IMG/VR virus record: IMGVR_UViG_2703718871_000003
DNA length: 11,770 nt
Source of the DNA: a virus
Taxonomy: Duplodnaviria; Heunggongvirae; Uroviricota; Caudoviricetes
Strand: one strand, 5' to 3'
Notes under the pieces: model-generated
Databases searched by the model: none
What the model was told of the DNA's origin: nothing
What the model saw: the letters and a program-made list of their open reading frames with translations, nothing else
Translations under genes and position numbers: made by a program
Part shown: positions 1 through 5,553 of the stretch, one piece after another
Layout of the letters: every line of letters starts with the position of its first letter
Position numbering within the stretch: the stretch's first letter is position 1

Positions 1-25
1 TCCCGTAAACCGAGGTTATCGATAA
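1..25. other. Candidate site-specific DNA invertase crossover site (gix/hix/cix/pix-like), truncated by the window edge
   Basis: Minus-strand sequence TTATCGATAACC-TC-GGTTTACGGGA (reverse complement of plus 1..25) is two imperfect inverted ~12-bp half-sites sharing an inner AAACC, around a 2-bp core. It matches my recalled gix consensus TTATCCAAAACCTCGGTTTACAGGAA at about 23 of the 25 visible positions. It lies inside the tail fiber reading frame, the position where Mu-type G segments begin. The consensus is from memory and was not searched. Confidence 0.55.
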
Positions 26-542
26 AGGTTCCTTTGTCCTGGATATCCGCGCCATTCTGGTCCCTGCGCAGGTAACGGTTATCACCTTCGCTCCTGCTGT
101 AAACATCCAGATTATTACGGGCGGTTTCCGCATTCTCCAGGTCGGCAAGGTTCTGATCCTTCGCCAGGGCATTAACGTCAGCGGGACCAAGACTGTTTTT
201 TGTGGCAAGCGTCCCCAGACCAAGATAACCACGGGCCAGACGCTGGGCTTCCGCACCGGCATCAGCAATTTCTTTCAGGTTGTTTTTCCGGGAAAAGGCA
301 TTCGCAGCGATAATGGCTTTAATGGACAGCGTAAGCTGGTTTAACTGCGCCTTATCCGGCTGAATACTGGCTTCAGCCAGAATATTCAGCAGTTCGGCCT
401 GGAGAATATTCAGCCAGTCCTGACCAATCCAGCTGATACCTTTTTGTCCGTCACCTTCGGTAAACCAGGTGGTGGTATTACTCTGCGCCGGAGCCAGTTC
501 AGGCATATTCGCCACGCCGGAATTATTATCAACATGGAACAT
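1..542 (-). CDS. Tail fiber protein, N-terminal constant region (partial; 3' end lies beyond window position 1)
   Basis: ATG at 542..540 preceded by AGAGGAGAA about 8 nt upstream. Translation MFHVDNNSGVANMPELAPAQSNTTTWFTEGDGQKGISWIGQ... and ending ...QNGADIQDKGTFIDNLGLR stays open to the window edge. Position immediately after the gp48-like gene matches Mu-like synteny, and the N-terminus resembles conserved enterobacterial Mu-like tail fiber N-termini (recalled). Confidence 0.75.
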   Translation of the reverse strand, partial: MFHVDNNSGVANMPELAPAQSNTTTWFTEGDGQKGISWIGQDWLNILQAELLNILAEASIQPDKAQLNQLTLSIKAIIAANAFSRKNNLKEIADAGAEAQRLARGYLGLGTLATKNSLGPADVNALAKDQNLADLENAETARNNLDVYSRSEGDNRYLRRDQNGADIQDKGTFIDNLGLR

Positions 543-3106: not shown

Positions 3107-4220
3107 TGAATTTAATCCCCTGTTTTTTCATCTGTGCCCGCACGAAGGCGTCCACGTCACCCGCATTTCCGCTTCCGCTGTTTCCCGGCTCTGCCGGAAC
3201 AATAAAGCCGTCACGGGGTGCCAGAATCAGACGGGTGGTTTCGCCGTGATTTGCATCCAGCGAAAACTCCACCTGACAGACAAGAAGATCACGCTCTTCC
3301 ACTCCGGTGCGGGGAGCCGTGACAGCCGTCAGCAGGTTGATATCCCACAACTGGCCGTTCTCCCGAAACCAGTGCCGCACGGTGGCTGTCAGGCGCACAG
3401 AGCGGGCAACCGCCCGGCGCATTTCCCGGACAGCCCTCTGGCGTGCACCGTCTGCATCAACAGCATGATCCGCCAGCACAATTTTCGGTCTGTAACGGTG
3501 GATGGCACTGTCTGTCACCGTACCAACTGGTGCGGCCAGCGTTCCGGCTGTCAGTGCATCCCCGGCATGACCACCACCACGCCCGTGCCCCCGTACACGG
3601 TATTCACTGTGGCGCAGACGGTGATCCACGTTGTGATCCAAATCCAGCAGATTTTCGCCCAGCGTCAGCGTGTCGCCACGCTGACTGCCGGCCTGAGTGA
3701 AAACCAGTTCACCGGCGGCATTACTGGTTACCAGGACGCCTCTGTGTCTCGCGGCCCGTGTCAGCGCATCTGCCACGGTTTCTGAATTTTCCAGTGTGAA
3801 GGTGGAAAAGGGCCGGGCTGCCGTTGCATCATTTACCTGCCAGCGCACCGTGACCCCGAACGGAGCACACAAATCTGAAGCAATGTGCTCCAGCGTGCGG
3901 TTCCTCCACTGGCTGCCCGGATGAATGGCTGAACAGTCCACCAGGTCACCGGTTTTATCCCGTCCGCTGAGCGTGATCTGAAAACGCGTGGCGCTGATGC
4001 GCTGCCGGACCTGATCCAGCCAGCCAGTGATCACAGGCTGACCGTCAATGCGCAATTCCAGAGACTGACCGGCACGGACGGATGACGGAAGGCGTACACC
4101 GGGCATCATTACCCCCAGTTCAAAGGAACCCGCCAGATGTTCAAGAGAGCGACGAACACTCACCGTCAGCCAGCCGGAAAAAATCTCACCGCCCAGATAC
4201 AGTTCAACCCTGCTGCTCAC
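3096..4220 (-). CDS. Baseplate hub protein (Mu P/gp44-like, P2 gpD-like)
   Basis: 374-aa ORF. Start is GTG at 4220..4218 (first in-frame start codon) with a strong GGAGGTG RBS about 5 nt upstream. Overlaps the end of the N-like gene by 17 bp. Size and position match Mu gp44. Confidence 0.8.
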   Translation of the reverse strand: MSSRVELYLGGEIFSGWLTVSVRRSLEHLAGSFELGVMMPGVRLPSSVRAGQSLELRIDGQPVITGWLDQVRQRISATRFQITLSGRDKTGDLVDCSAIHPGSQWRNRTLEHIASDLCAPFGVTVRWQVNDATAARPFSTFTLENSETVADALTRAARHRGVLVTSNAAGELVFTQAGSQRGDTLTLGENLLDLDHNVDHRLRHSEYRVRGHGRGGGHAGDALTAGTLAAPVGTVTDSAIHRYRPKIVLADHAVDADGARQRAVREMRRAVARSVRLTATVRHWFRENGQLWDINLLTAVTAPRTGVEERDLLVCQVEFSLDANHGETTRLILAPRDGFIVPAEPGNSGSGNAGDVDAFVRAQMKKQGIKFNDE

Positions 4221-5553
4221 TAATCACCTCCACTGAATGGCCTCCGGGAATGAACAGCGGATCAACAATACCGTTACGGCGCACAAAACGTTGCCAGCCG
4301 GTACTGTTCCCGGTGGCACGGTACAGGGTCACCAGTGCAGGCTCGGTGGTACGTACAGTCACTACTGTTGCACCGGGTAGCTGAACTCCCCGTGTATTCA
4401 GATCCTCTGTCAGTGCCAGTCTGGCATCACGAAGCGTCAGCGCCGTGGCGGTATACCCCTGCCCGGACAGTGTCATCACCTGCCGTTCGAGCGCTTCGCT
4501 TAAGTCACGGTTAATGCGCTGAAGATCAACTGAACTTTCCAGCCAGACAGGCCAGGTACGGTGGGCTGCGTCACTGTCCGGCAGGGTTTCCTGACTGAGA
4601 ACCTGATCCAGCAGTTTTCCCACGGTCTGTGCCTGGGCCACCACGGCAGCACTCTGCATTACCGCCCGTATCAGACGAATATTCTTTTGTGCTGCCGGTG
4701 TCAGACCGATGAGAGTCTGCGGATTATCTTGCTCATCCAGCACGTAACGCAGGGAAGATAATGTCCTGTACAGTTGCGGCATTCCCTGAGAGACGGCGGA
4801 TGTCGTCCGGCCGATACTGCCACCGGGCCGGGTATTCAGGCCTCCTGAAGACAGTGACGGCAGCGATGGCAGGGTGATCAGGGCACTGAAAAGCCCCGCA
4901 AAAGATGAGGCCATGCGGGAAGGTGCTGTCAGTAATGCCGTGGCATTCCCTTTCAGCGCCGTGAACGTGGCAGTAAAGGCACTGATATCCTGTACAATCC
5001 CCATGCCGGAAACGGCATTTTCCAGGGCGGACACCTTATCACTGATGGTTTCGGTCATTGCCTGGACATCGTGCATTCCGTCAGAGATCACCGTCCAGCC
5101 TGCTTCCAGGGTTTCAAAAACCTGCCCGAGCGCGGTGGTACTCTTCTGCTCCAGAATGGCGGCCGTGTCCTGTGTGACAGCAGGTGCGGTATCATCACTT
5201 ACCGGCGTGACATTAATGGTGAACTCAACCACGCCCTGTTCAGCGGCGTTATAACGACTTTCAAAGCTGTTTATCAGCACATTTAACGTGCCGTAATCCG
5301 GGTGAAGCAGCTCCCCGGCACCGGGAGCACGAAGGGCATCACGCAGACGATTTCGCTGTGTCTGAACATCATCCCCCATCACAAGTACACTGAACGTAAA
5401 TTCAGTCAGTTTAGGTCCCAGATCGTCTGCCCCACCGGTTTCCCGTAACGGATATTCCCGACGGACAATGTTTCGCCCACCACGTTCGCGCTGCTCACGC
5501 CAGACGAGGAACGGCACACCACGGAACGCACCACGACCGTCACCAGAGGCCAT
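4204..5553 (-). CDS. DNA circularization protein N-like (Mu gp43-like)
   Basis: About 450 aa in the expected position between tape measure and baseplate hub. I prefer the ATG at 5553 (MASGDGRG...) because GGAGGG lies about 6 nt upstream. The track ORF starts 7 codons earlier at 5574, which would overlap the tape measure end by 35 bp. Confidence 0.75.
   Translation of the reverse strand: MASGDGRGAFRGVPFLVWREQRERGGRNIVRREYPLRETGGADDLGPKLTEFTFSVLVMGDDVQTQRNRLRDALRAPGAGELLHPDYGTLNVLINSFESRYNAAEQGVVEFTINVTPVSDDTAPAVTQDTAAILEQKSTTALGQVFETLEAGWTVISDGMHDVQAMTETISDKVSALENAVSGMGIVQDISAFTATFTALKGNATALLTAPSRMASSFAGLFSALITLPSLPSLSSGGLNTRPGGSIGRTTSAVSQGMPQLYRTLSSLRYVLDEQDNPQTLIGLTPAAQKNIRLIRAVMQSAAVVAQAQTVGKLLDQVLSQETLPDSDAAHRTWPVWLESSVDLQRINRDLSEALERQVMTLSGQGYTATALTLRDARLALTEDLNTRGVQLPGATVVTVRTTEPALVTLYRATGNSTGWQRFVRRNGIVDPLFIPGGHSVEVISEQQG

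Follow-up and report, generated by a model that had tools for sequence, protein, structure and literature searches.

The inversion mechanism of phage Mu and similar phages has been textbook material since the 1980s. The G segment of Mu is 3.0 kb long, its two gix sites are identical and lie within 34-bp repeats, and it includes two tail fibre assembly genes, U and U', so that each of the alternative fibre cassettes has a co-oriented one of its own. The Pin/pix system of e14, the Cin/cix system of P1 and the Hin/hix system of Salmonella have the same 12-2-12 site architecture and likewise a small serine invertase; the core of these sites is AA, and Hin flips a promoter instead of fibre cassettes. 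Among the sites of the Din family, a GA/TC core is used only by Gin and PinB (PMC3241671). The mechanism described for Gin and Hin comprises an invertasome, a Fis enhancer, staggered cuts and subunit rotation (PMC3575834, PMC3798978). Within E. coli, it was pointed out in 2009 by Asadulghani et al. that Sp18, the Mu-like prophage of the O157:H7 strain Sakai, has an invertible host-specificity region distinct from that of Mu (PMC2669165), and the Sakai genome annotation names ECs_4992 'DNA-invertase'. On account of the textbook mechanism, this annotation and the 2009 report on Sp18, the switch described below is filed as already known; it is an ordinary system with nothing biologically new in kind, and the first-pass annotation of this DNA was right to call it a known system type.

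The window, i.e., the whole stretch of 11,770 nucleotides that was analysed (IMGVR_UViG_2703718871_000003), belongs to a Mu-like prophage, of which it carries the head-proximal, tail and baseplate module, with all its large ORFs on the minus strand and no tRNA within it. It is matched in 230–232 of 5,426 complete E. coli genomes; among the matches listed, most are Shiga-toxin-producing or O157-type strains and the best one is strain 88_1577 (locus L002), which is 99.9% identical. The identity to Sakai Sp18 (locus L005) is 98.3% over 11.1 kb and 96.1% over the last 634 bases, whereas the last 635 bases of the window, with the edge at position 1, are 100% identical to genomes in which the system is complete. 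The DNA beyond position 1 was read in relatives that are 99.8–100% identical at the window edge, and 12 prophages were compared, namely L001 (FORC_028), L002, L003 and L005–L013. At the other end of the window, an HI1506-related gene contains a hexamer array (CGGCTT, 9.8 units) at 11378–11436; the 88_1577 prophage has 7 units (42 bp) more, and this difference is an in-frame repeat-number polymorphism. A 'tRNA-OTHER' placed by RefSeq at 4172–4251 of locus L002 was not reproduced by ARAGORN.

At the edge of the window, the tail fibre gene holds the following features, given in window coordinates:

1..542, minus strand: constant N-terminal part of the tail fibre (Sc), codons 1–180 plus 2 nt
1..25, minus strand: left (constant-side) crossover site, 25 of its 26 bp inside the window
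25..14, minus strand: outer half-site, TTATCGATAACC, read from the window
12..13, GA on the plus strand and TC on the minus strand: core dinucleotide, where the staggered cut and the strand exchange would be expected
11..1, minus strand: inner half-site, GGTTTACGGGA, read from the window

The minus strand from 25 to 1 is TTATCGATAACC-TC-GGTTTACGGGA, exactly the sequence given in the first-pass annotation, and it is organised as two imperfect inverted 12-bp halves that flank a 2-bp core and agree at 8 of 12 positions. The inner AAACC that the annotation had ascribed to both halves is indeed present in the inner half-site, whereas the outer half-site has TAACC. Its remark that the DNA is cut within about 1 bp of the site was accurate, given that the 26th base falls one past position 1; in the relatives, this final base of the left site is A or T. 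The alignment to curated sites that the annotation had proposed was carried out with the Din-family site table of PMC3241671 as the reference for site identities. The 25 window bases showed 22 of 25 identities with Mu gix and with bixL and bixR of Shigella boydii (each with the GA/TC core in common), versus 19 of 25 with hixL and with cixR and 18 of 25 with pixL, i.e., the sites with an AA core are less similar. When the left site is completed from the relatives, it shares 23 of 26 bases with Mu gixL/gixR, with the GA/TC core in both, and likewise 23 of 26 with both bixL and bixR of the B segment (PinB), which has a GA core and whose published site sequences were compared; the outer-half ending TCGATAA is common to bixL and the window site. 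By sequence similarity, positions 1–25 are confirmed as a crossover site of the Din family of invertases (Gin/Hin/Cin/Pin).

A chance resemblance to gix was rejected, since a search with the Mu gixL 25-mer at up to three mismatches returned a single match in the window (1–25, minus strand) and none in 200 dinucleotide-preserving shuffles of it. A related objection is that the site lies within a conserved protein stretch, and the likeness to gix could reflect the peptide FIxNLGLxE in DNA that has no role as a site; elsewhere in the constant part, the 25 nt at window 344–320 are just as similar to Mu (23/25). We consider that this coincidence has a negligible probability. Inside the site, the codons of the conserved residues are the same as those of Mu in 6 of 6 cases, against 42 of 75 elsewhere; in addition, the natural inverted block begins exactly at the site, and its partner site, which is outside any fibre constant region, keeps the core and the inner half.

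The ORF of the tail fibre has its ATG at 542–540 (minus strand) and is open past position 1. The crossover site corresponds to codons 173–181, in frame, where the protein reads ...GTFIDNLGLR; the annotation had placed it about 175 codons from the start. The constant part in the window is 50% identical to that of Mu S (86 of 173 aligned residues), and the site occupies homologous codons of these homologous regions, with FIQNLGLQE at residues 166–174 of Mu S and FIDNLGLRE in the window. The location expected in the annotation from Mu-type phages, at the junction between the constant and the variable parts of the fibre, is in fact homologous to the position of gixL; as in the G segment, the site stands at this junction and both orientations yield in-frame fibres. 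Past the window edge, the ORF extends into the variable cassette that happens to face the constant part; in relatives, the complete fibres gave matches to phrog_1833 (tail fiber protein) with E values of 3e-164 and 2e-130.

In the related prophages the same 26-mer borders an inverted block, and past position 1 the order is a forward fibre C-terminus, a reverse assembly gene and a reverse second fibre C-terminus. The features of this region in the relatives are:

FORC_028 (L001), left site: TTATCGATAACC TC GGTTTACGGGAA, complete 26 bp
FORC_028 (L001), 11664–11689: right site, TTCCCGTAAACC GA GGTTTTCAGGGA, inverted, 1,375 bp further on
Sakai Sp18 (L005), 32481–32506 and 33856–33881: crossover sites with TT/AA cores
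88_1577 (L002), 20327–20352, versus FORC_028 (L001), 11664–11689: right-site T-run variant, GGTTTCAGGGAT versus GGTTTTCAGGGA
88_1577 (L002), 19295–19851: single tail fibre assembly gene, with the same layout in L001, L003 and L005–L013
FORC_028 (L001), 11319–11731; 88_1577 (L002), 20208–20393; L003, 3075–3461: silent cassette, inconsistently annotated in RefSeq

The segment between the sites measures 1.35–1.43 kb in the 12 prophages, in contrast with the 3.0 kb of Mu. A partner site that is inverted and has a matching core was found in all 12; the cores are TC/GA in 11 of them and TT/AA at both sites of Sakai Sp18. The right site of FORC_028 has the same inner half-site and core as the left one. 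The left and the right site have different outer halves, unlike the identical gix sites of Mu. The last base of the left outer half is variable (AACC or AACG), which changes a fibre codon from Leu to Val; the lineage of the window has AACC together with TC/GA cores, whereas Sakai has AACG together with TT/AA. The right outer half shows a 1-bp run-length polymorphism of three or four T residues (GGTTTCAGGGAT versus GGTTTTCAGGGA); both versions occur in genomes with the flipped orientation, and both seem to be tolerated at the right site. From both sites, an imperfect inverted repeat of 185 nt, 82% complementary, starts in the inner half-sites and runs inward. Sakai Sp18 (ECs_4989–ECs_4992) belongs to the same prophage family and has the order fibre, assembly gene, silent cassette and 'DNA-invertase'.

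These relatives, 99.8–100% identical at the edge, support the interpretation made from the window alone, and the predictions that could be checked in their sequences held. The annotation had foreseen an inverted second copy of the site at 1–4 kb, and it was found at 1.35–1.43 kb, the small end of that range; an adjacent serine invertase of about 190 aa was expected, and one of 186 aa with 75% identity to Mu Gin is present. It had also foreseen oppositely oriented fibre C-termini with their assembly genes, and of these the two in-frame C-termini were found, accompanied by one assembly gene instead of two.

The forward cassette (Sv) has approximately 127 aa and the alternative C-terminus encoded in reverse (S'v) has 117–122. 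It is the conserved 127-aa Sv that adjoins the constant part in the majority of genomes (182 versus 26). Each of the 12 prophages has one expressed and one silent variable cassette, and all 24 are intact ORFs, in frame and 117–127 aa long; open silent cassettes are what a working switch predicts. These cassettes form at least five families that are less than 65% identical to one another, and the two cassettes of one locus are 50–60% identical; as far as can be judged from sequence, this divergence fits different receptors. Beyond the first 40 residues or so, they are unrelated to Sv and S'v of Mu. In all 12 loci the ORF of the silent cassette is intact and is short of nothing but the constant part, which inversion supplies; its labels in RefSeq vary between 'tail fiber protein' (67 aa), 'partial pseudogene missing N-terminus' and, on the opposite strand, 'hypothetical protein'. 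Given this mislabelling, static annotation under-reports the phage receptor repertoire.

The only assembly gene of the segment (Caudo_TAP, PF02413, phrog_136) is co-oriented with the S'v cassette. Sv is followed by a hairpin only, and its stop codon is 34 bp from the convergent assembly gene; hence the arrangement of Mu, in which U and U' provide each cassette with its own co-oriented assembly gene, is not found here. A speculative reading, which we regard as rather doubtful, is that this family represents a stripped-down Mu switch, in which the Sv tip has no co-oriented chaperone and the cores have changed in concert between lineages. If this were true, the 127-aa Sv tip would fold unaided or would rely on a chaperone supplied by one of the many other prophages of the same host, and the matching cores might insulate the segment from other Din-type sites, e.g., those of the pix type with an AA core.

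The invertase of the relatives, a protein of 186 aa, starts approximately 55 bp after the right site, the same place as Gin in Mu, and the distance from the core to its start is 67–68 bp, also as in Mu. It contains the Resolvase (PF00239, E=1e-51) and HTH_7 (PF02796, E=2e-14) domains, falls in phrog_125 (DNA invertase) and matches the Mu Gin structures 3UJ3 and 4M6F with an E value of 2e-91. It shares 136 of 182 residues (75%) with Mu Gin and keeps the catalytic Ser9 motif RVSTNDQ; in one part of the gene, the DNA of E. coli pinE matched at 76%. Further downstream, com and mom-type genes are present in both Mu and the relatives. With regard to a putative enhancer, Mu gin contains pairs of G-N13-C motifs at a spacing of 48 bp, and no such pair was found in this invertase gene. 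The first 120 nt of the gene are 77–80% identical to Mu gin, and the later 60-nt bins are 57–80% identical; identical codons amount to 19 of 33 in codons 1–40 and to 44 of 98 later, so that synonymous sites near the 5' end show only a slight rise in conservation. Two candidate Fis cores lie 49 bp apart instead of 48 and were not relied on.

The occurrence of both orientations was studied with two queries, i.e., the natural 2,534-nt region of FORC_028 and a synthetic copy of it flipped at the core, against the 5,426 complete E. coli genomes. The natural orientation was detected in 182 genomes at a coverage of at least 80%, and the flipped one in 26, of which 16 gave a single colinear match; 15 of these 16 showed 98–99% identity over all 2,534 nt, including both junctions. 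When the 88_1577 prophage is flipped in silico at the core, it becomes 100.000% identical to that of AUSMDU00014361 over 5,584 bp; these two strains are among the four closest relatives listed for the window. In this lineage the two inner half-sites end in different bases (A versus T) and the outer halves bear no relation to each other, so that the exchange must lie within the 17 bp common to both sites, AACCTCGGTTTACGGGA, which include the core. Simulated inversion at the core gave intact fibres of 295 aa (L001) and 298 aa (L002), compared with 303 aa in the observed orientation.

These inversions could in principle be the product of general recombination by RecA between the 185-nt inverted repeats that the cassettes share from the inner half of the sites. 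This is very unlikely, and it was rejected on the mapping of the exchange to 17 bp. Complementarity within the repeat is no more than 82%, whereas the exchange between 88_1577 and AUSMDU00014361 took place within AACCTCGGTTTACGGGA, near the core, with the rest 100% identical; an exchange within so short a stretch favours site-specific recombination over RecA acting on 82% repeats. A stretch of 17 bp is shorter than the homology normally needed by the RecA protein of E. coli. Moreover, the cores co-vary between the two sites, and a Gin homologue adjoins the segment. At the level of genome comparison, both orientations in nature, together with an exchange mapped to 17 bp, indicate that site-specific inversion takes place at this site.

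From the biochemistry of Gin and Hin, it can be proposed that dimers of the invertase would bind both 26-bp sites and that the bound sites would then be brought together in a synapse, probably at an enhancer occupied by Fis within the 5' portion of the invertase gene. Both strands would be cut at the core with a stagger of 2 nt by means of the catalytic Ser9, and one pair of subunits would rotate 180 degrees before the DNA is religated. Such a flip would join the constant N-terminal part of 180 codons in frame to the other C-terminal cassette, and by analogy with the known systems it presumably changes receptor specificity and host range. Taken as a whole, it is highly probable that positions 1–25 are the equivalent of gixL in a Gin-type inversion switch of an Sp18-type Mu-like E. 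coli prophage.

A different reading is suggested by the condition of the window copy itself. A deletion of 113 bp is located at window 635/636, in the minus-strand ORF 603–989; it was called against the four relatives that were directly aligned (L001, L002, L003 and Sakai), and all the database matches listed span more DNA than the window query, which is consistent with it. Its junction has no microhomology. The deletion shifts the frame of a gene for a baseplate wedge protein similar to YmfQ/Mu gp48 and shortens the product from 186 to 128 aa; this 128-aa product matches only positions 5–124 of 224 in phrog_203. No exact match to the deletion junction was found among the viral, genome and metagenome contigs searched, and the 128-aa protein has no record in the collections searched. 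The prophage that carries this deletion may be defective, or the deletion may be an assembly error.

The site could therefore be a relic, i.e., a true gix-type site by descent in a genome where the switch is dead, because the segment or the invertase has been lost or mutated or because the prophage is too degraded for the switch to matter. In line with it, the frameshifted wedge gene is peculiar to the window copy, its junction is absent from all the collections searched, and the window stops at position 1, with the downstream DNA out of view. We judge this reading to be improbable, inasmuch as the 635 bases next to the edge are identical to those of genomes in which nothing of the system is missing, none of the 25 visible positions of the site is damaged, and the two sites, the two cassettes and the invertase are retained in 12 of 12 relatives. 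Nor would a defective baseplate prevent the DNA from inverting; it may only leave the inversion without a phenotype or consequence in that prophage.

A functional switch, which is the reading we prefer, gives the fibre gene at the window edge two alternative 3' ends. In the closest lineage, position 1 of the window (18925–18926 of L002) is the last base common to both orientations, and the next one (A or T) is the first that tells them apart. The location of the window edge at this branch point would fit a contig broken by a culture of mixed orientation; a de Bruijn contig would break exactly there only if the reads mix both orientations, the shared stretch being of only 17 bp. Switches of this kind break short-read assemblies at the crossover point, and a Din-type site is recognisable from 25 bases; the result is useful in practice, and its conceptual weight is small.

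Another difference from Mu is found just after the invertase gene, where the relatives have a gene (21067–23106 in L002) for a 679-aa protein that combines DUF6645 at its C-terminus with a carbohydrate-esterase domain of the SASA type (PF03629). This gene sits between the invertase and the com/mom-type genes, a place where Mu has nothing between the invertase and com, and its product may be an accessory protein that modifies surface sugars or is related to the receptor.
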